The notes: generated by a model from the sequence alone, not told the origin. Shown: positions 24,977 to 60,300, counted from the stretch's first letter. The stretch: 64,000 nucleotides of DNA from Nannocystis bainbridge (GCF_028368995.1 NZ_JAQNDL010000005.1:288001-352000), one strand, 5' to 3'. Program-made: numbers and translations.

Positions 24977-27097
24977 TCATCGGCCAGGTGATGCCGGCGC
25001 GATGACGACCTCGGCCTTGAGGATGCGGTCGCCGACCACCAGCGCCAGGGCGGCCGGCAGGCCGTCGCGGACCTCGCCGACGTGGGTGTAGCGGCCGTCG
25101 AGGTGCGGGGCGCGGGCGTGCATGATGAAGAATTGACTGCCGCCGGTGTCCTTGCCGGCGTCGGCGATGCCCACGGCGCCGCGCGCGAATGGAGCGGCGC
25201 CTGGCTCCGAGGGCAGGGTGAACCCCGGACCGCCCCAGCCGGTGCCGCCGGGGTCGCCGCCCTGGACGACGTAGCCGGGCACGACGCGATGGAACGTCAG
25301 GCCGTCGTAGAAGCCGCGCTGGGTCAACGCGACGATCGCCGCCACGTGCCACGGCGCGGCCGCGGGCGCGAGCGCCACGTCGACGCGGCCGCGCTCGGTG
25401 TGCAGCCGCCACAGCAGTTCACGGCCGAGCACCGGCGACGGATCGTGCAGCGGCAGCGGGACTTCGCGGCCGGGCCCGTTGACGCCGGGATCTTCGCCGG
25501 CGATCGCCTTCACGCAGGCGCGGGCCGCCGCGCGCACGCTGGCGTTCACGTCGGTGAGCGCGGCGCGACAGACCGGCAGCCCGCGCGCCCCGCCGACCTC
25601 GGCCAGCGCGCCCGCGAGGCCGGCGAACAGCTCGCCGTCGCGTTCGCCCGCGGCCCGCTCGACCAGCGCGTCGACGATCGCCGGCGCCTCCGGCCGCGGC
25701 GCGTCGCCGGCGAAGCGCCCCTGGACCGCCTCGGCCGCGGTGCCCACGACCGCCGGCGAGCTGTCCCGAAGGCCAGCCGCGATCAGGCCGCCGAGTTCGA
25801 GCGCGTCCCACTGCCGACCCGCCGCCGCCAGCGTGGCCGCCCGCACCCGCGGATCGTCGCTGGCCGCCAGCGCCGTCAGTCGGGCCGCCCGCGCCGGCCC
25901 GCCGAAGCCCTGGCCGAGCAGACCTGCCTCGAAGGCCAGCCGCTCGAGGTCCGCCGCCGCCCCGACCGCCTCGGCGCAGCGCAGCGGCGGCCGCCACTCG
26001 CCCGCGCGGGCCGCCAGCGCCGCCAGCCCGCACGCCAGCCGCGCCTGCACCCGCCGCGCCTCCGGCCGCGCCGCCGCCAGCCGGGCCTCGGCGCGCGCGT
26101 GGGCCTCGGCGGCCCCGGGCAGGACGTCCTTGCCGGCTGTCACGATGGACATGGCCTCGAGGACAGGGTGTCCAGAACCTGTCCCATCGAACATGTCCTT
26201 TTGTTCAAGCTCGGCGCGCAGCCAGTCCCACAGCGCCGCGGTCGCGGCCGGCTCGGCCAGCTCGCCGAGACCGCGGACCGCCGCCACCCGCACCCACGGA
26301 TCGGCGTCGCCGAGGCCCGCGCGCAGGGCCGCCAGCGCCTGCGGGGGCCGGTGCCGGGCCAGGCCCTTCAGCGCCAGCGCCCGCACCTCGGGCTCGGCCG
26401 CCGCGGCCGCACGCACCAGCGCCGCCGCGCCCGGGTCGATCGCCGCCTCGCGCACCGGCGCTGCTACCTCTGCGTCGGGCTTCGCCGCGGGCGCGTGGGC
26501 CAGCCCGTAGACCGCCGCGTAGACCCGCCGCGGATCGCCCTCGCCCGCCATCGCCACCAGCCCGGCGCGGGCCGCCTCATCGAGCGGCAGCCCGCGCCGA
26601 CCGAGGATCCCCAGCACGATCGCCGCCGCCTCGCGCACCGCCGGCGCCTCCTCGGGTCGCAGCGCCGCGGCCAGGCGCGCGCTCGCGGCCCCGCTGCCGA
26701 GCCGCCGCATCGCCAGCACGATCGCCAATCGCTCGTCCGCCCCCGCCGCCGGCCACCGCTGCCACACGGCGTCCTCGAACCGCGCCACCTCGGACCCGAG
26801 CGCCCCGGCGACGTCGAGCGCGCGCATGGCCGCCGCCCGCGTGGCCGCGTCGGGGCTCGCCAGCAGCGCGTCGAGCCGCGTCAGCGCGACCGCGTCGCCG
26901 ATCCGCCCGAGCCCCTCGATCGCCGCCGGGTTCGCCTCCGTGGCCAGCCGCGCCAGCTCGGCCGAGCCGCCCTCGCGCCGCGCCTCGAGGCGAGCGAGCG
27001 CGAGGCCCGGATCGTCGCCGCCGTCCGGCGGTCCCGACGGCCGCGCGCACCCGGCCACCAGCGCGATCGACAGCAGGAAGGAGCGCGGAGCCAGCAT
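24977..27097 (-). CDS. HEAT-repeat lipoprotein with C-terminal cyclophilin peptidyl-prolyl isomerase
   Basis: Lipobox VAGC, HEAT repeats (D.WVR.AA), FYDGLTFHRVVPGYVVQGGDP, DTGGSQFFI, HLDGRYT. Confidence 0.9.
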   Translation of the reverse strand: MLAPRSFLLSIALVAGCARPSGPPDGGDDPGLALARLEARREGGSAELARLATEANPAAIEGLGRIGDAVALTRLDALLASPDAATRAAAMRALDVAGALGSEVARFEDAVWQRWPAAGADERLAIVLAMRRLGSGAASARLAAALRPEEAPAVREAAAIVLGILGRRGLPLDEAARAGLVAMAGEGDPRRVYAAVYGLAHAPAAKPDAEVAAPVREAAIDPGAAALVRAAAAAEPEVRALALKGLARHRPPQALAALRAGLGDADPWVRVAAVRGLGELAEPAATAALWDWLRAELEQKDMFDGTGSGHPVLEAMSIVTAGKDVLPGAAEAHARAEARLAAARPEARRVQARLACGLAALAARAGEWRPPLRCAEAVGAAADLERLAFEAGLLGQGFGGPARAARLTALAASDDPRVRAATLAAAGRQWDALELGGLIAAGLRDSSPAVVGTAAEAVQGRFAGDAPRPEAPAIVDALVERAAGERDGELFAGLAGALAEVGGARGLPVCRAALTDVNASVRAAARACVKAIAGEDPGVNGPGREVPLPLHDPSPVLGRELLWRLHTERGRVDVALAPAAAPWHVAAIVALTQRGFYDGLTFHRVVPGYVVQGGDPGGTGWGGPGFTLPSEPGAAPFARGAVGIADAGKDTGGSQFFIMHARAPHLDGRYTHVGEVRDGLPAALALVVGDRILKAEVVIAPASPGR
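26136..26209. repeat. 14-bp-phased palindrome array inside a CDS
   Basis: Cores at 26136, 26150, 26164, 26178, 26192 (weak 26206) within the PPIase gene, with a local run of A/T-ending codons. Confidence 0.8.
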
Positions 27098-27112
27098 GGC
27101 CGAAAGGTCAGG

Positions 27113-27779: not shown

Positions 27780-27814
27780 TGACATGTCCTTGAGGACATG
27801 TCCCTCGCGCCAGG
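27780..27814. repeat. 14-bp-phased palindrome array (3 cores)
   Basis: GACATGTCCTTGAGGACATGTCC, cores at 27783, 27797, 27811. Confidence 0.85.
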
Positions 27815-28213: not shown

Positions 28214-29662
28214 ATGCAGCAGCCAAGGATCAGCCGTCGGCGTCTGGCCGGCCTCTTCGTGTGGGCCGGCGCGGCCCATGCCCTCCCCGCCTGCGGTCAA
28301 GCCGCCCCTGCCGAGAAGCGCGTGCTCGTGCTCGGAGCGGGTCTCGCCGGCCTCTCTGCGGCCTGGGAGCTACAGCAGCTCGGCTACGAGGTCACCGTGC
28401 TCGAGGGCCGCGACCGCGTCGGCGGCCGCGTGTGGACCTTGCGCGAGGGCCTCGAGCAGGGCCAGTTCGCCGAGATCGGCGCGGTGCGGATCCCCGACGT
28501 GCACGAGCGGACCCTCGAGTACTGCGAGATGCTGGGCCTCGAGCTCGACGAGTACAAGGACGGCGCGCCGCTCTACTACATCGACGGCAAGACCTTCCTG
28601 CACGTCGAGGGCGAGCCGTGGCCGGTCGACGGCCTCACGGACGACGAGAAGGGCCTCGGCCTCGGCGACTACTGGACCCGCGAGATCGCGGCGACCTTCA
28701 CCGAGTTCGGCGACCCGCGCATCAACGGCTTCCCCAAGCCGGGCATCGTCGCAGAGTACGACGGCATGGTCTACGCCGATTTCCTGCGCATGAAGGGCAC
28801 CAGCGAGGCCTACCTCAAGCTCTACGCCGCCGACAACGGCTCCGAGATCAGCACCATCGGCACGCTGGCGTGGATGGGCGCCGAGGTGGCCGACAAGGAC
28901 TGGGGCGCGACCTATCACATCCGCGGCGGCAACGACCAGCTGACCGAGAAGCTCGCTGACGAGGTCGGGCGCGCCAACATCCAGCTCGGCAGCAAGGTCA
29001 CCAAGATCGAGCACGACGACGCCGGCGTGACGGTCACGTTCAGCGGGCCCGACGGCGAGGCCTCGCTGTCTGCCGATTACCTGGTGTGCGCGATCCCCTT
29101 CACCACCCTGCGCGACGTCACCATCGAGCCGGCCTTCTCCGCCGACAAGACGCGGGCGATCAAGGAGCTGTTCCTGATGAACGCCGGCCGCGGCTACATC
29201 CAGACCAAGACTCGCTTCTGGGAGAAGGACGGCATCGGCGGCCTCAAGATCGCCAAGACCGACGGCCCGGCCGAGCGCATCTGGAACCTCAGCGACGTCC
29301 AGCCCGAGGGCACGACGATGGGCGTGATCCAGTCGTACACCCAGAACCACAACGCCGACGCCTACTGCGGCGTCGCCCCGGCCGAGCGCGAGGAGTTCTG
29401 CCTCGCCGAGGTCGAGAAGTTCTTCCCCGACATCCGCGCCGAGAAGGTCGCCTTCTTCCACTACTGCTGGTCCGACGACCCGTGGGCCAAGGGCGCGTGG
29501 ACCGACATCCTGCCCGACCAGTGGTGGATCGTCGCCGCCACCCGCAAGCCCGAGGGCCGCGTCACCTTCGCCGGCGAGCACACCTCGGTGTGGGCCGGCT
29601 GGATGCAGGGCGCGATCGAGTCCGGCCAGCGCGCCGCCGACGAGATCGCGGCGATGGGCTGA
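28214..29662 (+). CDS. Flavin monoamine/L-amino acid oxidase family protein with Tat-lipoprotein-like signal
   Basis: SRRRL..LPAC, GAGLAGL, E.RDRVGGRV.T, FAGEHT...GWMQGA.ESG. Confidence 0.9.
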   Translation: MQQPRISRRRLAGLFVWAGAAHALPACGQAAPAEKRVLVLGAGLAGLSAAWELQQLGYEVTVLEGRDRVGGRVWTLREGLEQGQFAEIGAVRIPDVHERTLEYCEMLGLELDEYKDGAPLYYIDGKTFLHVEGEPWPVDGLTDDEKGLGLGDYWTREIAATFTEFGDPRINGFPKPGIVAEYDGMVYADFLRMKGTSEAYLKLYAADNGSEISTIGTLAWMGAEVADKDWGATYHIRGGNDQLTEKLADEVGRANIQLGSKVTKIEHDDAGVTVTFSGPDGEASLSADYLVCAIPFTTLRDVTIEPAFSADKTRAIKELFLMNAGRGYIQTKTRFWEKDGIGGLKIAKTDGPAERIWNLSDVQPEGTTMGVIQSYTQNHNADAYCGVAPAEREEFCLAEVEKFFPDIRAEKVAFFHYCWSDDPWAKGAWTDILPDQWWIVAATRKPEGRVTFAGEHTSVWAGWMQGAIESGQRAADEIAAMG

Positions 29663-29668
29663 GCTTCG

Positions 29669-29748
29669 GGGCATGTCCTGCAGGACATGCCCTCTCGGAC
29701 ATGCGTGAAGGGACATGCCCGACCGGGCATGTCCCTTTCGTCATGCGC
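29669..29748. repeat. 14-bp-phased palindrome array (6 cores)
   Basis: CATG at 29672, 29686, 29700, 29714, 29728, 29742, starting just after the oxidase stop. Confidence 0.92.
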
Positions 29749-33212: not shown

Positions 33213-34910
33213 CTATCGAGGGTCCGCGACCGCGCGGAACAGCGGGCTGGCGACGAGGTCGACGAGCAGGCTCTGGACGCGGTGGCCGCTGGCGACGAAC
33301 CTGTCCTCGAGGACATCCAGCGCGGGCAGCTCGCCGAAGGTCTCGAGGTGGCCGAGGCCGCCGCGCACGAAGTTCTTGATCACGCAGGCCGCAGCCCGCC
33401 GATCGTCGACCAGCAGGGCCGCCAGCTCGCGCGCGCCGGCGAACCGGCCGAGGTCGTCGGTGCTGGCTTCGACGTCGATGGCGAGCCCCTGATCCTCGGT
33501 GCGGAAGCGGCCGAGGGCGTCGTAGTGCTCGAGGGTGAGGCCGAGCGGGTCCATGCCGCGGTGACAGCTGGCGCAGCTCTGGTCGGTCAGGTGCCGCTGC
33601 AGCCGCTGCTTCATGGTCTCCGGCTTATTTGGGTCGGCGGCCGGCAAGTGAGTGTCGACGCCGGGCGGCGGCGGCAAGATGATGTCGCACAGCAGGCGGG
33701 TGCGAATGAACTGACCGCGGCGGGTCGGCGAGGTCAGGCCAGGGTGGGCGAAGCGAGCCAGGAAGCTGGCGTGGCCGAGCAAGCCGGCGCGGCCCTGCGC
33801 CGCCGGCGAGGCGACGCGGTGAAAGCCCGGCCCGTCGGGCGCCGGCAGCCCGTAGAGCCCGGCCAGCGCGGCGTCGACGAAGGTGGTGTCGCTGTCGAAG
33901 AACCGGCGGATGTCGCCGTCCTCCTGCCATACGATCGCGTCGAGCAGATGCAGGGTCTCCTGCGCCATCGACCCGGCCAGCGCGGGCGAGAACTCCGGGA
34001 ACAGGTCGGCGCTCTTGGCCAGGGTCGGCAGGTCGCGCAGCAGCAGCAGCTCGCTGTAAAATTTGGTGAGGGTGGTCCGCGCCTCCGGTTGCTTCAGCAT
34101 CGCCGCGGCCGCGGCCCGCACCTGGGCCTCGGTCTCGAGCTCGCCGGCCTCGGCGGCGGCCAGCAAGGCGGCGTCCGGGGTGCGTCCGAGCAAGAAGAAC
34201 GACATGCGCGCGGCCAGCTCGAGCCCCGTGAGCCGCCGCCGCGCCGGGGCGTCGGAGTCGGGCTCGCCGAGCTCGAACAAATAGATGAAGTGCGGCGATT
34301 GCAGCAGCGCCATCAATTCGTATTCGAGGCCGACAGCGAACGAATCACCCCAGGCGCGGCCGTCCTCGGCGATCTGCACGAGCGCCGCGACCTCGCCGTC
34401 AGTCAGCGGCCGCCGCCAGGCCAGGCGCCCGAAATCGGCCGCCACGGCGGCGTAACAGGGCGAATCGGCGGTGGCATCATGGACGCACGGGACGAAGCTG
34501 GCGAGCCGCTCGCGATCGGCGACGGCGGCCAGAGCGACCGCTCGCGCGGAGGCCTCGCATTGTTCGATGGCGCTCGCCTGTAGCGCCAGCTCCGCCGCGC
34601 CGATGGCGTCGAACCCGTGCAGCGGATAATCCTCGGGGGGCGCAGCCGCGGCCGCCGCCTCGTCGCCGAGCAAGTAGCGGATCGAGCCGACGTATTGATG
34701 GCGCAGGAGGCGTCGCAGGCCGCCAGGGACCGGCGCGAACGAGTCCTCGTCGCCGCCGCCGGTGGTGCCGTCGATGGGCAGGTCGGTGCTCGCGTCGTCC
34801 GCGTCGCCCGGGCCCCTGCCCTCATTCGCCGGACATGCGAACAAGGTGAGACACGATGCGACAGCGATCGTCATCTCTCTTAAAAAATGATGGGTGAGCG
34901 ACCGCGACAT
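33213..34910 (-). CDS. DUF1592/DUF1588/DUF1595 (PSD/PSCyt) cytochrome-like protein
   Basis: LRRL...QY, AWRRPL, LLQSPHFIY, TSPTRRG, CASCH, DPLG..LEHYDA.G.FR. Start may be 34874. Confidence 0.88.
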   Translation of the reverse strand: MSRSLTHHFLREMTIAVASCLTLFACPANEGRGPGDADDASTDLPIDGTTGGGDEDSFAPVPGGLRRLLRHQYVGSIRYLLGDEAAAAAAPPEDYPLHGFDAIGAAELALQASAIEQCEASARAVALAAVADRERLASFVPCVHDATADSPCYAAVAADFGRLAWRRPLTDGEVAALVQIAEDGRAWGDSFAVGLEYELMALLQSPHFIYLFELGEPDSDAPARRRLTGLELAARMSFFLLGRTPDAALLAAAEAGELETEAQVRAAAAAMLKQPEARTTLTKFYSELLLLRDLPTLAKSADLFPEFSPALAGSMAQETLHLLDAIVWQEDGDIRRFFDSDTTFVDAALAGLYGLPAPDGPGFHRVASPAAQGRAGLLGHASFLARFAHPGLTSPTRRGQFIRTRLLCDIILPPPPGVDTHLPAADPNKPETMKQRLQRHLTDQSCASCHRGMDPLGLTLEHYDALGRFRTEDQGLAIDVEASTDDLGRFAGARELAALLVDDRRAAACVIKNFVRGGLGHLETFGELPALDVLEDRFVASGHRVQSLLVDLVASPLFRAVADPR

Positions 34911-36286: not shown

Positions 36287-36367
36287 GCGGGCCTTCGGGG
36301 CGAGGAACGGGCGCCAGGCATGACCCGCGACCACGCGCGCAGCGGCTATACTCGCGGCCGGACTCGC

Positions 36368-37111
36368 ATGGCCATCACCCGTCGCGCGCTCTCCAGCCAG
36401 GCCCTCGCCGTGCTCGCCACCGCCGGCCTGGCGCAGCTGCTGGTCTCGCCCGGCGTGCTCGCGGCGTCGGTGCGGCCGGCGCTCGGCGCCTGGCTGCGCG
36501 AGCTGGCGGAGATGACCCGGGCCCTGCGCGGGCGGCAGCTCGGCGCGCGCGAGTACCAGGGGCTGCTCGATGATCTGTGCGGCCGCGTCGAGCTGTCCGA
36601 CCTCCACGCGGCGATCGACCTCGAGGCCCTGAGGGCCCGCATGGCCGTGCCGGCGACCGGGGCCGGCAGCTGCGAGGTCGATTTTGCGGCCCTGGCCGGC
36701 GCTCCGACGCGTCTCGGCTTCGGCCGGCGGGTGTTCGCCTGCCGCCGCGGCCGCGCGATCGTCCCCCACGGCCACGACGACCTGTGCACCGCCTTCATCG
36801 TGCTCGCGGGGCGCTGGCGCGGCCGCCACTACGACCGGCTCGAGAGCCACGCCGATCACTTCGTGCTCCGCCCGACCATCGACCGCGCGTTCGCCCCCGG
36901 CGATAGCTCGAGCGTGTCCGACCACCGCGACAACGTCCACTGGTTCGAGGCCGAGACCGACGACGCGTTCGTGTTCAACGTGCACGTCGCCTGCGCCGGC
37001 GCCAGCGGCTCGCGGGTCTACCTCGACCCCGAGAGCGAACGCCTGGCGGGCGGGACGATCCGGGCCGCCAGGCTGAGCAAGGCCGCGTGCGTCGCCAAGT
37101 ACGGCGGCTGA
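36368..37111 (+). CDS. Tat-exported cupin (cysteine dioxygenase-like) protein
   Basis: ITRRAL signal, IVPHGH, HYD, NVHWF metal-binding His pattern. Confidence 0.7.
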   Translation: MAITRRALSSQALAVLATAGLAQLLVSPGVLAASVRPALGAWLRELAEMTRALRGRQLGAREYQGLLDDLCGRVELSDLHAAIDLEALRARMAVPATGAGSCEVDFAALAGAPTRLGFGRRVFACRRGRAIVPHGHDDLCTAFIVLAGRWRGRHYDRLESHADHFVLRPTIDRAFAPGDSSSVSDHRDNVHWFEAETDDAFVFNVHVACAGASGSRVYLDPESERLAGGTIRAARLSKAACVAKYGG

Positions 37112-37194: not shown

Positions 37195-37288
37195 CGACCT
37201 GCGCGGCTCATTATGTCCGAATGAGCATGTCCGATCGGGCATGCCCCCTCGAACATGCCCTCTTGCGCATGCCCTTCAGGACATGCCC
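37195..37288. repeat. 14-bp-phased palindrome array (7 cores)
   Basis: Cores at 37198, 37212, 37226, 37240, 37254, 37268, 37282. The last overlaps the ankyrin gene 3' end. Confidence 0.92.
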
Positions 37289-39565: not shown

Positions 39566-41218
<1,653 letters not shown>

Positions 41219-47122: not shown

Positions 47123-48724
47123 TCACGGCGTGCAAGCGGCCGGGCCGACCCTGACGTCGTCGACGTTCCAGCTGCCGACCAGATACACCAGAGTGCTGCC
47201 GACGTTGAAGCACCAGCGCGCGCGGAAGTCGGCGTTCTTGTGCGGCGTGACGTTGTACGAGAAGAACTTCCACTCGGTGTCGTAGGTCCCGGTCGCGAGC
47301 GTCTCCCAGAGGACCACCCAGTTGGTGCCGTTGTACACCGACAGCGTGTTCTTCATGTACGGCGTATAATCGCTGTTGATGTAGCGCCAGTACGACAGGT
47401 GGACGTCGGCCGGCGCCGCGGACAGATCGATCGTCGGGCTCTCGAGGCAGTAGTAGTCGTGGATGGTGGAGTTGGGGATGCAGCCGCCGAGGACGACACC
47501 GGCGACGCCGTTGTCGTCGGTCGGGGTGTGGTCCAGCGCGGGGTCCTGGCCGTTCTGGCAGCCGACCGACGCGGCCGCGGGGCCGATCGCCCACTGCGTA
47601 CCGAGCGTCCAGCCGGCGCCGTTGTCCGAGAAGTCCTCGTTGAAGAGATCCTCGAGCGACGGGCCGCACACGCCGGCGTCGCACACCTCGAGGTTGGTGC
47701 AGGAGTTGCCGTCGTCGCACGCGGTGCCGTCCTGGACCTCCTGGGCGAAGCAGCCACTCACCGGGTCGCAGGCGCCGGTATGACAGGCGCCGGCCTCGCC
47801 GCTGCAATCGAGCGGAGTGCCGCCGCCGCAGCTACCGGCGTTGCAAGTGCTGCCCTCGAAGCAGACGGTGCCGTCCTCGCACGCCTGGCCGTCGTTGACC
47901 GGCTCGGCGACGCAGGTGAAGCCCGGCATCTGACACGCGCCCTCGGTGCAATCGCCGTCGAGCATGTCGCAGTCGGCGTCGCTCAGGCACAGCGGCGCGG
48001 TGCACAGGCCGAGCGTGCAGATCGCCGACAGGCAGTCGCTGTCCTCGAGGCACAGCCCCTCGCCGAGGCAGCCGTTGCAGGTCGCCCCGCCGCAGTCGAC
48101 GTCCGTCTCGTCCTGGTTGAGCACGCCGTCGCCGCAGGTCGCCTGGGCGCACGCGCCGTCGGTGCACACGCCGCTGGCACAGTCGCTGGCCTCGGCGCAC
48201 GCGAGCGCGTCGCCGCAGGCCGGGCAGGTCGCGCCGCCGCAGTCGACGTCCGTCTCGTCGGCGTTCTTGACCAGGTCCTCGCAGCTCGGCGCCGCACACA
48301 CGCCGCCGACGCAGCTGCCGATCTCACAGTCGCCGTCCTGCGTGCACTGGAGGCCGTCGGCGCACGGCGAGCAGGAGCCGCCGCAGTCGACGTCGGTCTC
48401 GTCCTGGTTGAGCGTGCCGTCGTCGCACGAGGCCGCGGGCTCGGTGGTGACCTCGGTGGTGCTCGGGTGCAGCGTCGAGTCCGAGGAGGCCGTCTCGTCG
48501 GCGGTGGTGCTCGTCGAGGTCGTCGGCGTCCCCGTCGTCGTCGTCGTCGAAGTCGGCGGCTCGTTTGTGGTGACCGGCGTCCCAGTCGTCCCCGGTTCGC
48601 CGGTGCTGGTGTCGGTGGTACTGGCGGATACTTGCCCGTCCGTGGTCGTCGTGCCGGCGTCTCCGCAGCCAGCGAGCGCGAGGGCGCCGACGAAGAGCGA
48701 TACTTGGGTCCGTGGGGTGGTCAT
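47123..48724 (-). CDS. Cys-rich surface lipoprotein with ETDVDCGG repeats and a C-terminal beta-sandwich
   Basis: LAGC lipobox, Thr tract, three N.DETDVDCGG repeats, CDDGN.CT, LESPTIDLS...WNVDDV. Confidence 0.85.
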   Translation of the reverse strand: MTTPRTQVSLFVGALALAGCGDAGTTTTDGQVSASTTDTSTGEPGTTGTPVTTNEPPTSTTTTTGTPTTSTSTTADETASSDSTLHPSTTEVTTEPAASCDDGTLNQDETDVDCGGSCSPCADGLQCTQDGDCEIGSCVGGVCAAPSCEDLVKNADETDVDCGGATCPACGDALACAEASDCASGVCTDGACAQATCGDGVLNQDETDVDCGGATCNGCLGEGLCLEDSDCLSAICTLGLCTAPLCLSDADCDMLDGDCTEGACQMPGFTCVAEPVNDGQACEDGTVCFEGSTCNAGSCGGGTPLDCSGEAGACHTGACDPVSGCFAQEVQDGTACDDGNSCTNLEVCDAGVCGPSLEDLFNEDFSDNGAGWTLGTQWAIGPAAASVGCQNGQDPALDHTPTDDNGVAGVVLGGCIPNSTIHDYYCLESPTIDLSAAPADVHLSYWRYINSDYTPYMKNTLSVYNGTNWVVLWETLATGTYDTEWKFFSYNVTPHKNADFRARWCFNVGSTLVYLVGSWNVDDVRVGPAACTP

Positions 48725-51460: not shown

Positions 51461-51483
51461 CGCCGCGTGCGGCATCATCCAGC

Positions 51484-52217
51484 GTGCCGGCCTCCCCCTC
51501 TGCGGCGTCGGCCGGACTGGCCGCATGGGACGTCGCGGCCCGCCACCTCGTCGACGACGACCCGGCGGCGGCGGCGGCTGTCCTTTCGGACATGCCCGCG
51601 ACCACGGCGCGCGAGCACGCGATCCGGCTGGTCATCCTCGAGCGCCTCGGCGACCTCGCGGGGCTCGAGCGAGCCGCCGGGCCCGCCGCAGCGGTCTTGC
51701 TCGACCCGGCGGCGCGGGCCGACCTCGCCGTCCTCGTGCGCACCCGCCCGCTCGTCGCGGCCGCCCTGGTCGGCGCCTGCGCGCCGCTGCTGCCCGCGCT
51801 GGTCGACGTGTGGTCCGGGCTGCGCGCTCACCTCGGCGACGGTGAGGTCCGCCGGGCCGCGCTCGCCGGGCTGCACGCGCTCGCCCCGGCGGCCCCGACC
51901 GGCCCCGAAGACCACGCGGCGCTGGCCCGGTTGCTGGCGCTGCGCGGGCTGCTGGCGGCCTCCGAGGGCCGGAGCGCCCCGGCGATCCGCGACCTCGAGG
52001 CGGCGCTCGAGCGGGTCAGCCCGGACCTCGACGAGGACGAGGAGCTCGCCGAGATCCACGCGCCACGCTCGCGCGCCTGCTGGCCCCGGAGTCGCCGGCG
52101 CAGGCCCGGGTGCACGCGCAGGCTGCCATTCGCCGCAGCGTCACGCCCGAGCGGACCCGCGAGCGCATGCTCGCAGAGCCGGCGCTCGCGGGCTTGCTTG
52201 CCGACGACGCGCCGTGA
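51484..52217 (+). pseudogene. 5'-truncated, frameshifted helical/TPR-like gene fragment
   Basis: Typical-codon frame ...EELAEIH shifts at about 52060 (extra GC) to ATLARLLAPESPAQARVHA...LLADDAP* (TGA 52215-17). No convincing start. Confidence 0.6.
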
Positions 52218-52316
52218 AGCCGGGACCTGGCCTCATTCATCCCGCCGACACCTCCCGGGTTGTGTGGCACGCTCCGGCGAGGCGCCGGCAGATCCGGCCG
52301 CCGATCGGAGGACACG

Positions 52317-52976
52317 ATGATCACGCTCTATGGTTTCGGACGCATCTTCCCCGAGGGGCACGGCGAGACGAAGGACCTGCGGGCCCAGTGGGCGCTCGAG
52401 GAGACCGGGCTGCCGTATCGAGTCCACGCGCTCGACCACACCGCCGGTGAGCTCGACGGCGAGGCCTTCAGCCGGATCAGCCCCTTTCATCAAGCCCCGG
52501 TGATCGACGACGACGGCTTCATCGTCGCCGAGTCGGCGGCGGTGGTGCTCTACCTGGCCGAGAAGGCCGGCAAGCTGATCCCGGGCGATTTCCAGGGCCG
52601 CACCCGCGTCGTCCAGTGGTGCTTCGCCGCGACCAGCACCGTCGAGCAGACCCTGGTGTGCCTCGATCTGATCGGCATGTTCGACCACGACAAGGCCGCC
52701 CACAAGGTCACCGCGGAGGTGCGCAAGATCGCCGACCGCTGGCTCCGCGACGTCGAGCGCCGCCTCGAAGGCCGCGAGTGGATCGCCTGCGACGCGTTCA
52801 CGGCCGCCGACATCATGCTGGCCTCCGTCCTGCGCGGCGTCCGGAAGACCGACCTGCTGGCGCCGTATCCACGGACCCAGGCCTACTACGCGCGGGCCAT
52901 GGCCCGCCCGGCCTGGCAGCGCACCCTCGGCCTCTACGCCGAGCGACTCGGCGCGAACCTCGACGACATCCGCTGA
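52317..52976 (+). CDS. Glutathione S-transferase family protein
   Basis: R.QWALEE.GLPY, SPF.Q.P...DD....ESAA...YLAE, FTAADI. GGAGG RBS. Confidence 0.92.
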   Translation: MITLYGFGRIFPEGHGETKDLRAQWALEETGLPYRVHALDHTAGELDGEAFSRISPFHQAPVIDDDGFIVAESAAVVLYLAEKAGKLIPGDFQGRTRVVQWCFAATSTVEQTLVCLDLIGMFDHDKAAHKVTAEVRKIADRWLRDVERRLEGREWIACDAFTAADIMLASVLRGVRKTDLLAPYPRTQAYYARAMARPAWQRTLGLYAERLGANLDDIR

Positions 52977-53131
52977 CAGGTCGCCCGGGCGCGGACGATC
53001 CCGCTTTCCCCGCGTACCCACAGTTGCTTCACCACGGCGAAGCTGGCCTCGCCGCCCCGATCGACTTCGCCGTTGTCAGCCGCAATCTCGCGCCCGACCC
53101 GCGGCTCGGCTGAGCCGAGCCCGCCGCCGCG

Positions 53132-53752
53132 TCATTCGGCGTGGAAGATCACCCGCTCGAACGTATCCGACCCGTTGAGATTCTCGTTCGCGCCGCAGCG
53201 ATAGCCGGTCCCGATCTCGTCGCCGAGGGTGTGCCAGCACAGGCGCAGGCTCGAGTTGTCCTCCGGGCCCCCGAATTGCGTGTCGCACTCGGTGCGATTC
53301 ACGCTGTCGCCCGCGCGCGCGAAGCCCCACGAAAAATTGTCGCTGAAGTACCAGGCGACCCCGTTGGCCTCGTGCTTGCCGTCGCCCTGGCTGCCGACGT
53401 CGAACAGCACGTCGGCCCGCTCGCCCATCGCCAGCAGCTGGAAATCGTCCGCGCCGACGGGGCGGCACGCCATGAGCAGCTTGGAGCCGGTACACGCCTC
53501 GCCGAGGATCTCGTCGGTGAGGTCGGGCTCGACCTCGTCGTAGAGATTCGCGAAGCACTCTTCCCAGCCGACGAGGTCGCCCGCAGGCACGTCCTGCTGC
53601 GGTCCCTCGGCCCAGTACAGCTTGTCGTGGTGACCGTCGTCGTCGTCGTCGTCGTCATCATCGCGGTCCGGCACGTCGACCTCGCAATCACAGTCTTGGA
53701 CGTACGGAATTGTGCATAACAAGCTGCTGAGCACGATCGTGGTGTAGTGCAT
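53132..53752 (-). CDS. Secreted protein with poly-Asp tract and a Cys/Trp-rich domain
   Basis: Hydrophobic N-terminus, D9 tract, GPQQ.V...GW.EC, KLLMACR, ANGV.WYF, SWGF, RLCWH, GYRCG. Confidence 0.75.
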   Translation of the reverse strand: MHYTTIVLSSLLCTIPYVQDCDCEVDVPDRDDDDDDDDDGHHDKLYWAEGPQQDVPAGDLVGWEECFANLYDEVEPDLTDEILGEACTGSKLLMACRPVGADDFQLLAMGERADVLFDVGSQGDGKHEANGVAWYFSDNFSWGFARAGDSVNRTECDTQFGGPEDNSSLRLCWHTLGDEIGTGYRCGANENLNGSDTFERVIFHAE

Positions 53753-54142
53753 CGAAATCCTCCCTCGGCGATATCCCGCTCGAACTGCCTCGAAGATGCG
53801 ACAGGTCGCAGGGGTAGCAACCATGCAGATTGACGCCGCTCACGGTCCGCCGCAGCGACGCGAGCACGCCGGGCACACAGCGTTCCGTGGATCCGTCGAG
53901 CTGCTCCCGGCGCGTGGGAACGCTCCAGCCCGCTCTTGCCCGCGACCTCAGGGCCACGTGCGCCGGCCACTTGTCAGCGATCGACGCCGCCCGGGGACAG
54001 GCACACGCGCGGCGATCACTCTCATTCTGTTCAGTAGATGCAGACGGAGCCGGCTCGCTCGGTCGAAACTCAAGCGCCCCTCTTCACGGACGAACGCCTC
54101 GCCAGCGTCGCAGCGACCGGGCTCGCGCTATAAGAAGCGACG

Positions 54143-54604
54143 ATGAGCGACCCGCTGCGAATCCCCGTGCGCGCCCCGAACGGGCTCCTGTGGGTGAACG
54201 TCTTTCTCCAGCCCGCGGTGATGCTCCTCTGCCTCTGGCTCGCGATGACCGCGACGACCGACAGCGCGCGAACCCTCATGTGGCAGCTCGTGGCGCTCTC
54301 GACGGCCGGCTTCGTCGGCGCCGCGTGGCTGCTCGCGCGCCGCCGGCGTTCGGAACACGCGATCGTGATCGACGACCGCGCCCTCACGATCCCCGGCGTG
54401 CTCGGCGGCGCGACCGAGGTCGTCCTCGCGTCGATCGAGAGCGCGAGGCTCGAGGTGACCCGCTCCGCGACCGAGACGCTCTCCGTGCTCCGCCTGGAGG
54501 CGAAGAATCGGCCGCCGGTCCTGGTCTCGAGCCGGCTCGTCGGCGCCCAGGCCGTGCAAGCGACCGCCGACTCGCTGCGGGCGCGCGGTGTGCCGGTCGC
54601 CTGA
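54143..54604 (+). CDS. Hypothetical 2-TM membrane protein
   Basis: Two TM segments plus a PH-like tail. Confidence 0.6.
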   Translation: MSDPLRIPVRAPNGLLWVNVFLQPAVMLLCLWLAMTATTDSARTLMWQLVALSTAGFVGAAWLLARRRRSEHAIVIDDRALTIPGVLGGATEVVLASIESARLEVTRSATETLSVLRLEAKNRPPVLVSSRLVGAQAVQATADSLRARGVPVA

Positions 54605-54686: not shown

Positions 54687-55709
54687 TCAGGGGCAGCTCG
54701 CGGGCGATTCGACGTACAGCTGGCCCAGCTCCGTCAGTTGCCCCGACCCGGCGAGCAGGTCGATCGTCGGCGCCGGGTCGAAGCGGCCGCTGAACCACGA
54801 GTAGCGGGCCACCGCCGGCTCGGCCTCGAGGTATTCGAGCGCCTCCTGCATGTATTGCAGCTGCACCGCGACCGACTTGTCCTCCGCGTCGAGGCAGGAG
54901 AACTCGGTCAGCCAGATCGGCCGCTCGTAGCGCTTCATCTCGCCGATGTACCATTCGAGCGCGGGGCGGTCGCAGGCGTACCAGTGGACCGCGAGGTGGT
55001 CGACGCGGCAATCGGGGCAGGCGGCGAAGAACTCGTCGAACCACTCGAACGGGTCGGTCTTGTTGCAATCGCCGCCGCAGTAGTTGACCGCCGGCGACAC
55101 GATCTCGAGCCCGTGCGCGTCGGCGACCGCCTCGACCTGCGGCCACAGCGCGGCCGCCTCCTGCGGCGTCAGGTTGGCCTGGGCGCCGAAATTGGGCTCG
55201 TTGAACGCCAGCAGGTAGCGCGCCCCGGCCGGGATCGGCGGGTCCTGATCGAGCGAGGCCCCGCCCCACAGCATCGGCACGAACTCGACGTCGAGCGAAA
55301 CGTAATCGCCGACCTCCTGATCGGGCGGGACCGTCCAGTTGTACCACCACGACACCCCGGGCGCGAGCGCGGCCATGTCCGCGTGCGAATGATAGCCGTA
55401 CGCGATCCCCCGCTTGCAGCCCGAGCGATCGACGCCGCCCGAATCATCCGTGCTGCTGCCCTCGCTGGTCGGCCCGTCGCCGCTGGTCGGCCCGTCGCCG
55501 CTCGTCGGCCCGTCGCCGCTCGTCGGCCCGTCGCCGCTCGTCGGTCCGGTGGACGGCCCCCCGCTGCCCGTCGGCGTCGTCGTCTCGCCCCCGCTCGTCG
55601 GGCCCGCGGTCGTCGACCCGGCCTCGCTCGAGTTTCCGCCGTCGTCACCACAGCCGGCCGCCAGCGCCAGCATCAGCCACCATTGTCCGCGCATCATCAT
55701 ACCTCGCAT
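54687..55709 (-). CDS. GH128 (Glyco_hydro_cc) beta-1,3-glucanase lipoprotein
   Basis: AAGC lipobox, GPTSGD repeats, KRG, SWWYNW, FVPMLWG, LLAFNEP, AVHWY, PIWLTEF, RYSWF. Confidence 0.88.
   Translation of the reverse strand: MRGMMMRGQWWLMLALAAGCGDDGGNSSEAGSTTAGPTSGGETTTPTGSGGPSTGPTSGDGPTSGDGPTSGDGPTSGDGPTSEGSSTDDSGGVDRSGCKRGIAYGYHSHADMAALAPGVSWWYNWTVPPDQEVGDYVSLDVEFVPMLWGGASLDQDPPIPAGARYLLAFNEPNFGAQANLTPQEAAALWPQVEAVADAHGLEIVSPAVNYCGGDCNKTDPFEWFDEFFAACPDCRVDHLAVHWYACDRPALEWYIGEMKRYERPIWLTEFSCLDAEDKSVAVQLQYMQEALEYLEAEPAVARYSWFSGRFDPAPTIDLLAGSGQLTELGQLYVESPASCP
55464..55545. repeat. 18-bp coding tandem repeat (GPTSGD) in the GH128 linker
   Basis: (CTSGTCGGCCCGTCGCCG)n, about 4.5 copies. Confidence 0.85.
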
Positions 55710-55714: not shown

Positions 55715-57097
55715 TCAGTTCGGCAGCCGCAGCCCGAGCGCCTCGCCGATCGTCGCCTGCGACACCGCCCCCGGCAACCCCGGCAACAGCGGCGCGAGCG
55801 CGGGCGGGACCTGCTCCGGGTGCACGATCGCCAATTGCACAGTGCGCGACGCCGTGTCCATCAGCACGATGAAATAGCGGTACCCGTCGATCGGCCGGCG
55901 GAACGCCACGCCGGGGCCCTGATTCGGGGTCGCCACCGCGCCCGCGGCCGCCTCGACGTTCTCGCCCTTGTCGATCAGGTCGACCTCCGGCCCCAACTGC
56001 GAGGCGTCGCACCCGTCGCCGCACGGCCCCTCGCCGACGTAGCCGGCGTAGCCGAAGAAGTTGGTGCTGAACACGCCGAAGTTCTGGTACTGGTTGTTGT
56101 CGTTGACGACCTCCCACACGTTGAATTGGCCGCACCCGTCGCCGAGGTACCATTCATCGGGGTTCTTGGCGTAACACTGGCAATTCGAGAACGAGCCCGC
56201 GCGCACCAGCTCGCCCAGGCTGAGGCCGATCCACGGCGCGTTGTACCAATTGCCGGCCATGTCGTCCGAGCACGGCTCGCCGACCGCGTCGGCGTCGGGC
56301 ATGCGCGCCAGCAGCACGAACAGCTTCGAGCCGGCCCAGCCGTCCCAGTCGCCATCCTGCGAGCCCGGGCAGAACGGCTCGCTGCCCGCCCCGCAGGCGA
56401 ACGGCGTCGCGGTCGAGACATTGACGAGACACTCGGTGCCGACGATCCCGTCGAACCCCGTCATCTCGGTCTCGTTGCCCTTGAACGCGACGCCCTGCCC
56501 GTCGCCCGGCCGGCGCTCGTCCCAGCTCGAGGCCAGCGCCCACTGATCGGCACCCTCCGGCTGGTACACCGCGAATTGCTTGAGCTGCAGCGGCCCGCGC
56601 AAGGTGAGGATCAGGTCCTCGTCCCACGGTGTCAGCCCGTCGCCGTCGACCTGCTGCTGCGCCAGGCAGCAAGTGTCGCTCTGATACGCGTCGCACGGCC
56701 CCACCGCTGGATCGCGCCGGCTCGGATACCAGCCCGGTGCGCCGATCTGCTGGAAGGTGATCGTGCCGCCGTGCGACGGCGCGTCGAGCTCGTCGGTGTC
56801 GAACTCGGCCGGCCCCAGGCCATCACCGCCCCCGGTCGGGTCATTGCCAGCGTCGGGCTTGGGCCCCCCGCTCGAGTCGCTGCCGGTGGGGTCCGCTCCA
56901 CCCGTCGGATCGACGCTGCCCGAGGTACTGGTGGGGGGCTCGCCACCCGTCGAAGGCCCGGCGCCGGTCGGCCCGTCACTCGTGGGCCCCGCGCCCGTCG
57001 GCCCTGCCCCGTCCGTCGGCTGCTCCGCGCCGCCCGGGGTGCAGGCGACCATCCATGCCAGCGCGACCGAAGCGTGAATCGACCCTGTCCGCCGCAT
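55715..57097 (-). CDS. Tos1/YJL171C-like (DUF2403+DUF2401) glucan-active lipoprotein
   Basis: MVAC lipobox, LTPWDEDL..RGPLQLKQFAVY, GW.GSKLFV..MP, CQCY...GCGQFNVWEV, FRRP..G. Confidence 0.75.
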   Translation of the reverse strand: MRRTGSIHASVALAWMVACTPGGAEQPTDGAGPTGAGPTSDGPTGAGPSTGGEPPTSTSGSVDPTGGADPTGSDSSGGPKPDAGNDPTGGGDGLGPAEFDTDELDAPSHGGTITFQQIGAPGWYPSRRDPAVGPCDAYQSDTCCLAQQQVDGDGLTPWDEDLILTLRGPLQLKQFAVYQPEGADQWALASSWDERRPGDGQGVAFKGNETEMTGFDGIVGTECLVNVSTATPFACGAGSEPFCPGSQDGDWDGWAGSKLFVLLARMPDADAVGEPCSDDMAGNWYNAPWIGLSLGELVRAGSFSNCQCYAKNPDEWYLGDGCGQFNVWEVVNDNNQYQNFGVFSTNFFGYAGYVGEGPCGDGCDASQLGPEVDLIDKGENVEAAAGAVATPNQGPGVAFRRPIDGYRYFIVLMDTASRTVQLAIVHPEQVPPALAPLLPGLPGAVSQATIGEALGLRLPN

Positions 57098-57329: not shown

Positions 57330-60300
57330 TCAACGCGGCTCGCTGGCCGCGAGCAGGCCCTCGGGCGTGGCCGGCAGCCGCACCGCGCCGATGGGCGCGC
57401 CGATCACGATCGCGTCCTCGCTGTCGGCGGTGAACGCCAGCTCCACCGGCGTCCCGCCGTGCAGCCGCGCGATCGTCCCGGCGAACGCGCCGTCGTGCGC
57501 CGACCACAGGCCGACCTCGCCGCGCTGATCGGCGATCAGAATCTTCGAGCCGTCAGGCGAGAACACCGCCGATCGCCGCACCCAGTTGCGCCGCCCCTCG
57601 AGCTGCACGCTCGGCGAGAGGTCGTCGGCCCGCCACAGCCGCGCCGCGCCGCTGTCGTCGAGCCCGAGGATCGCGCTGTCGTCCGGCGAGTACTTCGCCG
57701 ATACGATCCGCGCCGCATTGCCGCGCAGCTCGGCCAGCACCTCGCCGGTGCGCGCGTCCCAGACCTTCGCGTCGCCGCGGCTCCCGTGGGCGAACATCTG
57801 CGCGCCGTCGTGAGCCCCCGCGATGCCCGAGAGCTCGCTGCGGAGCCCGTCGAACTGCACGCTCGCGCGCGTCCACGGATCGAGCAGCTCGAACCGCGTG
57901 GTCCACCCGGGGATCACGAGCTGCCCGATCGCCGTGCCCTCGATGCGGCCGTAGGGCAGGTTCGGCCGCCGCAGCGTGTGCAGGCCGCGGCAATCCGCCG
58001 TCGACCACAGGTGCAATGCGCTCTCCGTGTCGACGGTCACCACCGCCTCGGCGTGCGGCAGGAACACCGGCCGCTGCCACATCTCGAGCGTGGTCGGCAG
58101 CGCGCAGCGCAGCGCACCCGTGTCGGCGTCCCACAGCTCGGCGGCGCCGGCGGGCGAGGCCGCGAGCAGCGTGCCGGCGCCCGACAGCACCAGCTTCGCC
58201 ACGTCGTTGGTCGCCTCCGCCGCGAGCAGGGCCCCGTCGGTCACGCGATGCACCGTCACCACCCCGTCGCCGGCCATCGCCAGGCGGTCGCCGGCGACAT
58301 CGATGTCCATCGCCACCGGCGCCCGGGCCACGCGCCAGCGCGCCGGCACGGCCAGCGGCAGCTCCCACACCAGCGTCGGCCCGGCCGCCGTGCCCGCGAG
58401 CAGCTGGCCGCCGTCCGGCGAAAACTGCAGCGACATCACGTCGTCGTACGCGGCCCGCAGCGTCGCCCGCAGCGCCCCGGTCGCGACCTCCCACACCCGC
58501 ACCGTGCCGTCGCCGGCCCCGAGCGCCAGCCACCGCTCGTCGGGTGACAGCGCCGCGGCCCCGTAGTGCGCGACCTCGCCGTCGACGCGCCGGATCATCC
58601 GCCCGTCCTCGGGCGCCCACGCGAACCACGCCCCGTCCATGATGACCGAGATCAGCGTCTCGCCGTCGCCGGTGAACAGCAGCTGCTGCGGCGAGAACGT
58701 CGGCCCGACCGCGCGCTTGACCAGCTTCGGCGCCGCGCCGCCCACGTCCCACATGTAAATGTCCATGTCGTTGCCGGCGACCGCGACGCGCTCGCCGTCG
58801 CCCGAGATCGCCAGCGCCGTGTACATGCGCGCCGACGTCGGCAGGTCGCCCAGCTTGCGGCCGTCGGGCAACGACCACAACCACGCGTAACCGTTGTCGC
58901 CGGTGACGATCCGCGAATTGTCGCGCGAGAACGCGGCCGCGTGGGCCCTCTGCGGCAGCGCGGCGATCAGCGCCCCGGTGCTCGCGTCGCGCACGCGCAG
59001 CTCGCCCTCGGCCAGCGCGGCGATCCGGGTCCGATCGGGCGACATCGCGATCAATTGCTGCTCGTCGCCGAGCCGCGCCGTGATCGCCCCGCTGCGCACG
59101 TCGCGGCGCACCAGCCCGTCCTCGCCGGCGGTGACCAGCGCCCCGTCGGCCGCGACGTCGGCCCCGGCCACCCCCTCCAGCTCGACCAGCCGCTGCCCGC
59201 TGCCCGCGTCCCACAGCCGCAGCGTCCTGCCCTCGACCAGCGTCAGCACGACCTCGCCGCCCGCCGCCCAGCGCGCGTGGTTGACGTAGCGCCCGTCGAC
59301 CGCGCCGTACTGCATCACCACCCGCGGCGCCATCAGCGTCGCCGCCAGCGCCCGGCTGGCCGCCGCGATCGGGCCGCCGGTGCGCAGCGCCTCGCCCGCG
59401 GCCGCCCGCGCGATCGCCCGCGCGGCGTCCGTTCGATCTGTCTCTTCGGACATGTCCTGCGCGCGCAGGATCGACGCCTGCAGCCGCTGGGCGTCGACCA
59501 CCGCCTGGCGCTCGAACGCGCTGCGCTCCGCCTTGTCGGCCTGGGCCGCCGCCTCGCGCTCGGCCTGCTCGGTCTGCGCCCGCGCCTCGGCCCGCGTGCG
59601 CGCCTGCTCGTAGCCCAGCCAGGCCAGCGCCACCCCGCCCGCGAGCGCCAGCCGCAGCCCCGCCACCGCCACCCGGTGCGAGCGGGCCCACAGGCGGGCC
59701 CGCTCGCGCAGCGAGTACGCGTGGGCCGCCACCATCTGCCCGGCCTGGAACCGCCGCAGCTCCTCGGCGAACGCGGCCGCGTCCGGGTAGCGATCGGTCG
59801 GCGCGCGGGCCATGGCCCGGTGGGCGATGGTCGCCAGCTCGCCCGGGATCGCCGGATCGACGCCCCGCAGATCGCTCGGGTGGCCGGCCAGCACCTGCGC
59901 CGCCAGCCCCGTCCCCGTCACCGCCGCGAACGGCGGCTGCCCGGCCAGCACGTGATACAGGATCGCCCCCAGCGCGTACACGTCGGAGCGCACATCGACC
60001 ACCTCGCCGGCCGCCTGCTCCGGCGGCATGTAGCGCAGCGTCCCCAGCACCGTGCCCGCCTGCGTCATGTCCGAAGTGCCATGGTCCAAAGGACCTGCTC
60101 CATCGGACATCTCATTTTCGACCGCCGTCAGGTCCTTGGCCAGGCCCCAGTCGATCACCACCGTCTCGCCGAAGCGACCGACCAGCACGTTGGCCGGCTT
60201 GAGGTCGCGGTGCAGCACCTTCTGCGCGTGCGCGTAGGCGATCGCGTCGGCCACCGCGATCACGTGCTCGACCAGCCGCAGCCGCTGCGGCAGCGTCGTC

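Follow-up and report, generated by a model that had tools for sequence, protein, structure and literature searches.

A 14-bp palindromic repeat family in Nannocystis with copies inside coding sequences

We analyzed a stretch of 64,000 nucleotides from Nannocystis bainbridge (GCF_028368995.1, NZ_JAQNDL010000005.1:288001-352000), which we will call the window, together with the genome that it comes from and the genomes of its relatives. Nannocystis is a genus of soil myxobacteria. Arrays of a 14-bp unit, built around the 10-bp palindrome GGRCATGYCC, are found throughout the genome, usually just past stop codons and in hundreds of cases inside open reading frames (ORFs). We propose that these arrays form a genus-restricted family that resembles repetitive extragenic palindromic (REP) sequences and bacterial interspersed mosaic elements (BIMEs), that purifying selection maintains the nucleotide sequence of the units within coding sequences (CDSs), and that a putative sequence-specific factor reads the units. 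We put the probability of this reading at roughly 0.6.

An earlier note on the window, made from its sequence, had claimed that arrays are written into CDSs at the cost of codon bias, and that the DNA motif is under selection instead of the peptide. Four lines of evidence support selection on the DNA motif: an excess of in-CDS arrays over synonymous shuffles, the retention of A- or T-ending codons across species, a pattern of identity that follows the 14-bp phase, and lower conservation of the encoded amino acids. Because of this selection on the units, A/T-ending codons would be forced into a genome with 94% G+C at third codon positions (GC3).

A family of 14-bp palindromic repeats

The genome assembly has 11.05 Mb in 5 contigs, with 71.5% G+C, and is 90.5% complete. 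The repeat unit comprises GGRCATGYCC and four weakly constrained bases. Across the genome, pairs of RCATGY cores are spaced at 14 bp 2,363 times, as compared to 21 times at 13 bp and 26 times at 15 bp, and there are harmonics at 28, 42, 56, and 70 bp. In the window, there are 20 matches to GGACATGTCC with at most one mismatch, versus 2.05 expected and a maximum of 6 across 100 shuffles.

To identify arrays, we derived a 14-position weight matrix from 1,203 units that were sandwiched between two good neighbors, and we defined an array as at least two matrix-scored units that are chained at 14 bp. This gave 2,996 arrays in the genome. The same procedure at periods of 12, 13, 15, 16, or 17 bp gave 65-180. 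By size, there were 1,665 arrays of two units, 472 of three, 320 of four, 280 of five, 186 of six, 54 of seven, and 19 of at least eight. We called genes with a crude caller of our own, based on codon log-odds (8,051 genes, 84% coding). On these calls, 1,819 arrays are fully intergenic, 315 overlap the end of a gene, 800 (27%) lie well inside ORFs, and 62 are within a gene but close to its edge (the first 60 nt or the last 30). Those 800 arrays are distributed over 643 genes.

The closest relatives of a window gene are from other Nannocystis (89-92% identity). An exact two-unit consensus was present in 8 of 10 genomes from the genus (the two that lack it are only 64% and 88% complete), in none of 8 other genera of the family, and in none of 12 others of the class. 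A degenerate three-unit pattern matches this genome 105 times, but no match was seen in a sample of 200 other genomes from the phylum. In these samples, no genus other than Nannocystis had the repeat.

A scan of the whole window against Rfam at the gathering thresholds gave no matches. Also, we found no published description of a 14-bp repeat of GGRCATGYCC in the searchable literature, which is thin on subscription journals. When GGACATGTCC was used as a text query, about half of the matches listed were eukaryotic p53 response elements, which are coincidental, and no title among them concerned a bacterial repeat.

In-CDS arrays exceed chance and carry a codon cost

A re-scan of the CDSs found 817 arrays, while each of 8 within-gene shuffles of synonymous codons gave 92-110. 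The excess is about 8-fold, with around 100 of the 817 calls (about 12%) expected by chance. For arrays of at least three units, the counts were 201 and about 12 in the synonymous shuffles. At control periods of 13, 15, and 16 bp, we found 30, 115, and 28 in-CDS arrays. Even the two-unit arrays, of which there are 616, are far more numerous than at these periods (29, 101, and 24).

Over the 8,406 codons inside in-CDS arrays, GC3 falls to 0.657. The host genes otherwise have a GC3 of 0.940, and the flanks of 20 codons have 0.906. Some of the drop follows from the definition of the arrays, whose motif includes A and T. The high GC3 of the flanks shows that the arrays are embedded in true coding sequence.

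These controls bear on the possibility that the in-CDS arrays are an artefact, due to chance, to the composition of a high-GC genome, or to miscalled ORFs. Five of the nine in-CDS sites that had been listed in the window do fall below the threshold of our matrix, and our gene caller is crude. But the control periods and the shuffles exclude chance, and the flanks have the GC3 of coding sequence. Furthermore, Pfam domains lie in frame on both sides of the arrays, and the alignments across the arrays (see below) preserve the frame, in most relatives without a change in length. We consider an artefact to be refuted for the family as a whole and give it next to no weight.

The codons ACA, GGT, TCT, GGA, CCT, AAA, and TTG had been seen to cluster at the sites in the window. 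Genome-wide, all seven are enriched inside in-CDS arrays, from 2.3x to 24x: ACA 24x, GGA 12x, TCT 9.8x, AAA 8.1x, CCT 7.9x, GGT 5.4x, and TTG 2.3x. CAT (23x) and TGT (16x) are enriched as well. Since 14 = 3x4+2, the frame shifts by 2 with each unit, and a peptide would repeat only every 42 bp. The encoded peptides are thus non-repetitive, as the earlier note had stated. Among the three possible starting frames of in-CDS arrays, the one that encodes Thr-Cys is the rarest (155 arrays versus 384 and 261).

Units within genes often have CAGG (or CCTG on the other strand) instead of CATG, as in L091:511-576 and at 26147-26198 in the window. This change swaps Cys, Met, and His codons for Gly, Arg, and Gln. 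The CAGG variants seem to reconcile the motif with the needs of the protein.

The motif is conserved across species and the peptide less so

We obtained the syntenic 80 kb from five congeners and built codon alignments for 34 genes of the window (protein identities of 48-93%). Synteny with these relatives is nearly complete. The aligned columns contain 652 A/T-ending codons, of which 101 end in A or T in all of the relatives and 286 in none of them. In the nine listed sites, 27 of 38 A/T-ending codons are kept, versus 125 of 614 elsewhere in the 34 genes (odds ratio 9.6, p=1.4e-10; p-values are overstated because the five relatives are kin and the codons within one site are not independent). 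Within the four sites that the matrix calls as arrays, 16 of 19 are kept. Four of the listed sites were recovered by an unbiased scan for clusters of conserved A/T-ending codons, which found 16 in all. The checks that the earlier note had proposed, on the excess over synonymous shuffles, the drop in GC3, and conservation at synonymous sites of the motif, all favor its claim.

The amino acids show the opposite trend: 60 of 118 columns (51%) are invariant inside the sites, versus 3,120 of 4,892 (64%) in the rest of the host genes. Where the residue is invariant, the codon itself is identical for 41 of 53 residues inside the sites and 1,949 of 3,006 outside.

As a replication outside the window, 8 in-CDS arrays with at least three units were randomly chosen among 137 candidates. 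Six of the 8 align across the array in at least four of the five relatives, with the units in place. Of the other two, L092 is partly conserved, with an alignment that begins within the array, and L089 could not be aligned across the array in any relative. In another extension, 200 kb of additional synteny in two relatives yielded orthologs for 29 and 35 of 165 genes, none of which has an in-CDS array.

We then pooled 11 arrays (the four from the window and seven replicates, with L089 dropped) and computed the identity of the relatives to this genome at each position of the unit. The identity is 0.96, 0.93, 0.91, and 0.92 at the central CATG, 0.77-0.87 at the outer bases of the stem, and 0.59-0.72 in the spacers; these values rest on 11 arrays, with relatives that are kin and positions that are not independent within an array. 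The identity of the CATG core is similar at codon positions 1, 2, and 3 (0.92, 0.95, and 0.93). The spacers have identities of 0.65, 0.84, and 0.49 at these codon positions, and the flanks have 0.83, 0.82, and 0.77. For the whole 10-bp unit, the identity at third codon positions is 0.83. Overall, the spacers diverge faster than the flanking CDS (0.66 versus 0.81). Identity follows the phase of the 14-bp motif instead of the phase of the codons, and this is our most direct evidence that the units themselves, as DNA or RNA, are under selection and the peptide is not.

Alternatively, selection could act on the peptide (for instance, on a linker motif such as D-M-S, G-T-G, or G-H-V) or on translational pausing at rare codons, and the DNA motif would be a by-product. 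The idea of rare codons in linkers is not new, and the sites do cluster in linkers. Also, roughly 100 arrays survive each synonymous shuffle, which implies that the peptide carries part of the signal. But the observed count is 8 times that of the peptide-preserving shuffles; the amino acids are less conserved inside the sites, and they change while the motif or its pairing is kept; most copies of the motif are non-coding; and conservation runs in the 14-bp phase. We consider selection on the peptide or on pausing to be very improbable.

In one relative (G007) and in none of the others, a 1-base deletion splits the reading frame in two of the replicate loci: just after the last unit in L097 and inside a unit in L127. 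Either the assembly is wrong at these hairpin-forming repeats or the frameshifts are real.

The unbiased scan also found conserved A/T-ending codons away from the called arrays, at 25192-25204, 13964-13979, 13472-13478, 11314-11323, 34301-34325, and 56899-56911. These clusters may mark other embedded nucleic-acid signals. Clusters at the 5' ends of genes (28277-28370, 41182-41203, and 43786-43804) fit start regions with weak structure.

In-CDS sites in the window

The nine listed sites lie in genes for a protein with HEAT repeats and a cyclophilin domain, an ECF sigma factor, two Ser/Thr kinases (one of which has two sites), a DUF1592-type protein, a transglutaminase, a PAS histidine kinase, and a "barrel-like" protein; Pfam confirms all of these assignments but the last, for which it gives no match. 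At all nine sites, the DNA is as had been described, and the quoted peptides are correct. However, our matrix calls only four of them as arrays (24015-24038, 26147-26198, 42930-42967, and 60063-60114), and the other five (7142, 33300, 39963, 44387, and 59437) are weaker matches of one or two units. The arrays in the PPIase, the ECF sigma factor, and the kinase-WD40 gene are called at orthologous codons in all five relatives, versus 0-2 of five for the weaker sites.

The PPIase array has four units (26147-26198, minus strand, in the HEAT-cyclophilin gene at 24977-27097). It encodes residues ~300-317, in the linker after the HEAT repeats; the minus strand of 26135-26209 translates as LEQKDMFDGTGSGHPVLEAMSIVTA. 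Six of the nine A/T-ending codons in the span 26136-26209 are kept. The ECF array has three units (42930-42967, minus strand, gene 42587-43816) and encodes residues 284-296, which are C-terminal to sigma region 4; 42932-42964 translates on that strand as QVPKDMSKGTS.

The Ser/Thr kinase-WD40 gene (57330-60740) contains two sites, both on the minus strand. The four-unit array at 60063-60114 encodes residues 209-226 in the activation loop of the kinase, and it translates in frame as EMSDGAGPLDHGTSDM. Here, 6 of 8 A/T-ending codons are kept. At 59437-59460, which encodes residues 427-435 between the kinase and WD40 parts, there is one perfect unit, GGACATGTCC, and a weak second unit. The perfect unit is identical in 4 of 5 relatives (it differs in G003), and the weak one is variable.

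The remaining matrix call is a two-unit array on the minus strand at 24015-24038, which encodes residues 38-45 of the transglutaminase-like protein (gene 22683-24149). All three of its A/T-ending codons are kept, and it is among the unbiased clusters. So is the weak two-unit match at 44387-44418 (GGACCTGTCT and AGACAGTCTC; minus strand, residues 155-165 of the Pfam-less product of 43864-44880), which keeps 4 of 5 A/T-ending codons and is called by the matrix in two of the five relatives and not in this genome. The weak match at 39963-39994 (CCTGTCC ctga GGACAGG; minus strand, residues 409-419, in a linker of the Ser/Thr kinase encoded by 39566-41218) is likewise called in two of five relatives, with 3 of 4 codons kept.

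The last two sites are also weak two-unit matches. One of them, at 33290-33320 (minus strand), encodes residues 509-519 of the DUF1592-type protein (gene 33213-34844), inside the DUF1585 stretch, and its single A/T-ending codon is kept. The other, at 7130-7165 (plus strand), encodes residues 69-80 of the PAS histidine kinase (gene 6926-9586). The motif-like form is present here and in three of the five relatives, with G/C-ending codons in G007 and G005, and none of the 3 A/T-ending codons is kept. Individual weak sites such as this one may be due to chance.

Where the arrays lie in proteins

The earlier note had placed several of the sites in linkers or loops. Six of the nine do lie outside of Pfam stretches, and another is in the kinase activation loop. 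Of the other two, one is inside DUF1585 and one is in the Pfam-less protein. Among the replicates, there are arrays after a kinase domain, before a PDZ domain, and after a PQQ-like stretch, and one is inside the N-terminal domain of apolipoprotein N-acyltransferase. Genome-wide, the shift towards disorder is slight. On the TOP-IDP scale, the 25-residue flanks of arrays average 0.131, versus 0.105 at random positions in the same proteins (p<1e-9). The hydrophobic fraction of these flanks is 0.277, versus 0.301 (p<1e-9). Placement in linkers and loops is a tendency and not a rule.

The array in the kinase activation loop fills the space between the DWG motif and the downstream GT..YM motifs. In distant congeners with the same kinase-WD40 architecture (~50% identical), the loop is of similar length, has G/C-ending codons, and lacks the motif. 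At this one site, the comparison indicates that the motif replaced an existing variable loop without adding length, so the phrase "written into" is apt. For the ECF sigma factor, a distant homolog lacks the segment, and the alignment of the linker is poor there.

Could the arrays be selfish or mobile repeats that inserted in frame and were tolerated, so that their conservation reflects shared ancestry or gene conversion towards the consensus? The family is dispersed, high-copy, and genus-restricted, the in-CDS copies prefer regions that are poorly conserved and slightly prone to disorder, and the intergenic copies turn over. (The array after the gene at 22024-22503 is missing from two of the five relatives, and the number of units varies.) Signs of mobility differ by location: intergenic arrays show gain and loss, and in-CDS arrays are fixed at orthologous codons in the relatives examined. 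However, shared ancestry does not explain why A/T-ending codons outside of the sites decay, or why the spacers have diverged beyond the flanking CDS while the cores are held. The kinase loop has gained no net length over that of the distant congeners, and a partner transposase was not found. Compensatory changes away from the consensus (see below) oppose simple conversion. Overall, we view selfish insertion as improbable.

Intergenic arrays and their hairpins

Of 1,446 convergent gaps between genes, 706 (49%) hold an array, as do 782 of the 4,331 tandem gaps and 166 of the 1,471 divergent ones. The median array in a tandem gap is 43 bp past the upstream stop and 173 bp ahead of the next start. 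Most arrays are just past stop codons, above all in convergent gaps. This placement is like that of REPs or terminators.

The window contains several examples. Six units at 29669-29748 begin 7 bp past the stop of the gene at 28259-29662. At the orthologous place, all five relatives have an array past the stop (by 7 bp in four of them and 14 bp in G010), with varying spacers and numbers of units. The seven-unit array at 15950-16043 lies past the stop of 14297-15943, in a convergent gap; in all five relatives, this place has a four-unit array, which forms perfect hairpins that are specific to each species. Five units at 22537-22602 follow the gene at 22024-22503, also in a convergent gap; there is an array past the orthologous stop in three of the five relatives, and it is absent from G010 and G003. 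Six units at 18808-18887 fill the convergent gap between 18119-18805 (plus strand) and 18890-20722 (minus strand), and another six, at 37209-37288, lie between 36320-37111 (plus strand) and 37276-38481 (minus strand). Five units at 17212-17277 follow the gene at 16684-17160, and four units at 46429-46480 follow 45460-46413. A two-unit array is at 27780-27803. All of these are matrix calls.

Another two-unit array, at 5639-5662, lies between the called start of the gene at 3506-5593 and the start of a longer ORF at 5677, and may be either coding or upstream.

Each unit is its own reverse complement, so neighboring units can pair to form a 10-bp stem with a 4-nt loop. In 4,953 pairs of non-CDS units, the first flank position, which is unconstrained, is complementary in the hairpin register at a rate of 0.341, versus 0.274 expected. 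Further out, the ratios of observed to expected complementarity are 1.17, 1.16, and 1.07, versus 0.93-1.00 for shifted controls. The R and Y positions of adjacent units also covary, with odds ratios of ~1.9 and ~1.5 (computed from the unit tables), as compared to ~0.6 within one unit and ~1.0 for units that are two apart. Complementarity is best for the pairs at the ends of an array. Finally, the hairpins past orthologous stops are perfect in each species, with sequences that differ among species. Pairing into hairpins is thus supported for the intergenic copies.

The earlier note had argued that the motif is not just a terminator or a REP. This was not established: the family is placed like REPs or terminators, and its intergenic copies covary in the hairpin register.

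Arrays are irregularly spaced along the genome (coefficient of variation 1.45). As a separate idea, we considered whether in-CDS copies fill gaps between intergenic ones, and rejected it: their median distance to intergenic arrays is 2,126 bp, versus 2,090 bp for random CDS positions (p=0.88).

Possible pairing inside genes

The three longer in-CDS arrays of the window can all fold. Across six species, their consensus structures are paired at 94% (ECF), 89% (kinase), and 97% (PPIase), as compared to 27-50% for slid controls. Of the three, the ECF hairpin alone is variable enough for a test of covariation, and it has compensatory changes, with stems of ATGTCC/GGACAT, ATGGCT/AGCCAT, and ATGTCT/AGACAT. 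In two of its six pairs, both bases have changed and still pair (UA to GC and CG to UA), and one pair has become G·U. It has a covariation score of 0.40, which 24 of 500 shuffles reached; the score in shuffles was 0.24. The amino acids vary (S/A/F, G/K/R, and T/P) with the pairing kept. For the in-CDS copies taken together, the data support hairpin pairing only weakly, as discussed below.

How the units might be read

We suggest that the intergenic copies act at the 3' ends of transcripts, as orientation-independent stem-loops that would stop or protect the RNA, and that the units are read by a putative sequence-specific factor, either as duplex DNA or as hairpins. The in-CDS copies would keep the same nucleic-acid-level role, as binding sites for the factor, as pause or attenuation sites, or as RNA-processing sites. 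They would persist where the protein tolerates the imposed peptide, which is mostly in linkers, loops, and poorly conserved stretches. The CATG core would be kept above all, and the 4-nt spacers and the encoded peptide would be free to drift.

Besides the chance calls, the kinship of the relatives, and the crude gene calls, several findings weigh against this reading. First, the kinase and PPIase hairpins are near-invariant, so that 184 of 500 and 500 of 500 shuffles reach their covariation scores; these sites demonstrate constraint and not structure. Second, in-CDS arrays as a class have no clear covariation in the hairpin register (ratios of 0.95-1.12 across 1,141 unit pairs). Coding constraints and the ~12% of calls that are due to chance may hide the covariation, or pairing may not be selected there. 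Third, an excess of G·U over A·C mismatches fails to separate RNA from DNA: in arrays downstream of genes there are 1,236 G·U and 876 A·C, but a non-pairing control is equally skewed (765 versus 503), and within in-CDS arrays the counts are 747 and 715. Fourth, we found no U-tract in 474 arrays downstream of genes. The frequency of T after the last unit equals the mirrored frequency of A before the first, and given these mirror-symmetric flanks and the lack of a U-tract, the arrays are not canonical intrinsic terminators. Fifth, the strict spacing and the near-invariant CATG would imply recognition of the sequence, since a plain hairpin needs neither.

The search for a partner also counts against the proposal. 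We did not find the reader of the motif. Y1/RAYT transposases (PF01797) were not found in this 90.5%-complete genome; a control search found them in 6 of 14 reference genomes. Among 63 genes that are flanked by arrays on both sides, which we considered as candidates for mobilizing enzymes, only Ser/Thr kinases recur.

Methylation of CATG was a separate lead, and it is unsupported: among DNA methyltransferase families, none had a genus-specific profile. Of 10 congeners, 9 have a D12-class methyltransferase, but so do 6 of 8 other genera of the family. We found no C5 methylase in this genome.

The main rival is that the arrays are purely binding sites on duplex DNA, with a dimeric protein on each palindrome, cooperative binding due to the 14-bp phasing, and no role for hairpins. 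This would account for the strict spacing, which holds in ORFs as well, for the retention of CATG at any codon position with free spacers, for the mirror symmetry of the arrays, and for the lack of covariation in CDSs. Independent recognition of half-sites does not, however, predict the hairpin-register covariation outside of CDSs, the negative association of R and Y within a unit, or the compensatory changes off the consensus in the ECF gene (such as GCT/AGC in G010). The irregular spacing of the arrays along the genome, with in-CDS copies that do not fill gaps, and the lack of a candidate protein also speak against it. We think that a pure duplex-DNA system is unlikely, though less so than the other rivals.

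A bolder form of our proposal is that an undescribed DNA- or RNA-reading system of this genus recognizes the phased GGRCATGYCC units as its code and needs sites both inside and after genes. We offer this tentatively and would not bet on it. If true, more than 600 genes, or ~8% of the proteome, would be subject to an additional conserved constraint on their sequence. This second layer would override one of the strongest codon biases known, and the peptides of linkers and loops would be shaped as a by-product. The "second code" of the earlier note overstates the case, as no function or reader of the motif has been identified.

Other features of the window

Several genes within 45018-46413 and 51475-54604 have no ortholog in the syntenic regions of most or all of the five congeners, and the G+C content falls to 0.66-0.70 around 48-54 kb. 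The two intervals look like a strain-specific insertion in an otherwise collinear region.

There are also three tandem repeats. One, with a 76-bp period (2.5 copies, 77% match), is at 21795-21984, between the genes at 20730-21494 and 22024-22503, and is unrelated to the 14-bp family. A 147-bp repeat (2.3 copies, 48077-48411) inside the gene at 47123-48724 is probably a repeated protein module. An 18-bp repeat (4.8 copies, 97% match, 55463-55548) inside the gene at 54687-55700 would encode a hexapeptide repeat.

Significance and comparison to known systems

Nucleic-acid signals that are embedded in bacterial CDSs are usually isolated cases, and here one motif is found in hundreds of genes. The family might serve as a natural system for measuring how much of protein sequence space can be ceded to a non-coding signal. 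It also offers a first look at how the ends of genes are marked in a high-GC myxobacterium that seemingly lacks classical terminators, and a route to finding the reader of a REP-like element where the RAYT transposase is absent. For the annotation of Nannocystis genes, and for codon optimization in work on their natural products, clusters of rare codons may be functional elements of the DNA or RNA.

Like intrinsic (Rho-independent) terminators, the arrays are G+C-rich stem-loops past stop codons and are enriched between convergent genes. Unlike them, the arrays lack a U-tract and have mirror-symmetric flanks, a single stem with an invariant CATG is used genome-wide, and hundreds of arrays are inside ORFs.

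Rickettsia palindromic elements (RPEs) are described as being about 150 bp long, as lying in frame within genes, where they encode a conserved peptide, and as being regarded as selfish insertions (PMC10969869). As with RPEs and miniature inverted-repeat transposable elements, our repeats are palindromic and lie in frame inside genes, where they add to or replace the peptide in tolerant parts of the protein. In contrast to RPEs, the arrays are 24-94 bp of 14-bp units, the frame shifts by 2 with each unit, and the peptide is not conserved. At the one site that was compared, the kinase loop, there is no net insertion. Finally, it is the DNA motif that purifying selection maintains among species.

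The closest likeness is to REPs and BIMEs, for which regular spacing and binding by proteins have been described (PMC2817692). REPINs have been described as well (PMC3116915), and a GTAG/CGTC tag at the end is said to be a feature common to most REPs (PMC3733652). As in these systems, the Nannocystis arrays are short palindromes in hundreds to thousands of copies, mostly extragenic and near the 3' ends of genes, and they form regularly spaced composite arrays that are capable of forming hairpins and have a lineage-specific sequence. REPs are imperfect palindromes of 20-40 bp in alternating orientation, whereas our unit is a self-complementary 10-mer in a strict 14-bp tandem. The matrix of 1,203 units has no GTAG/CGTC tag, and no RAYT/Y1 gene was found in the genome. 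Of the features by which REPs are recognized, we found high copy number, palindromy, and complementary arms outside of genes. "Extragenic" holds for the majority only: unlike REPs, 27% of these arrays lie inside ORFs and are conserved there.

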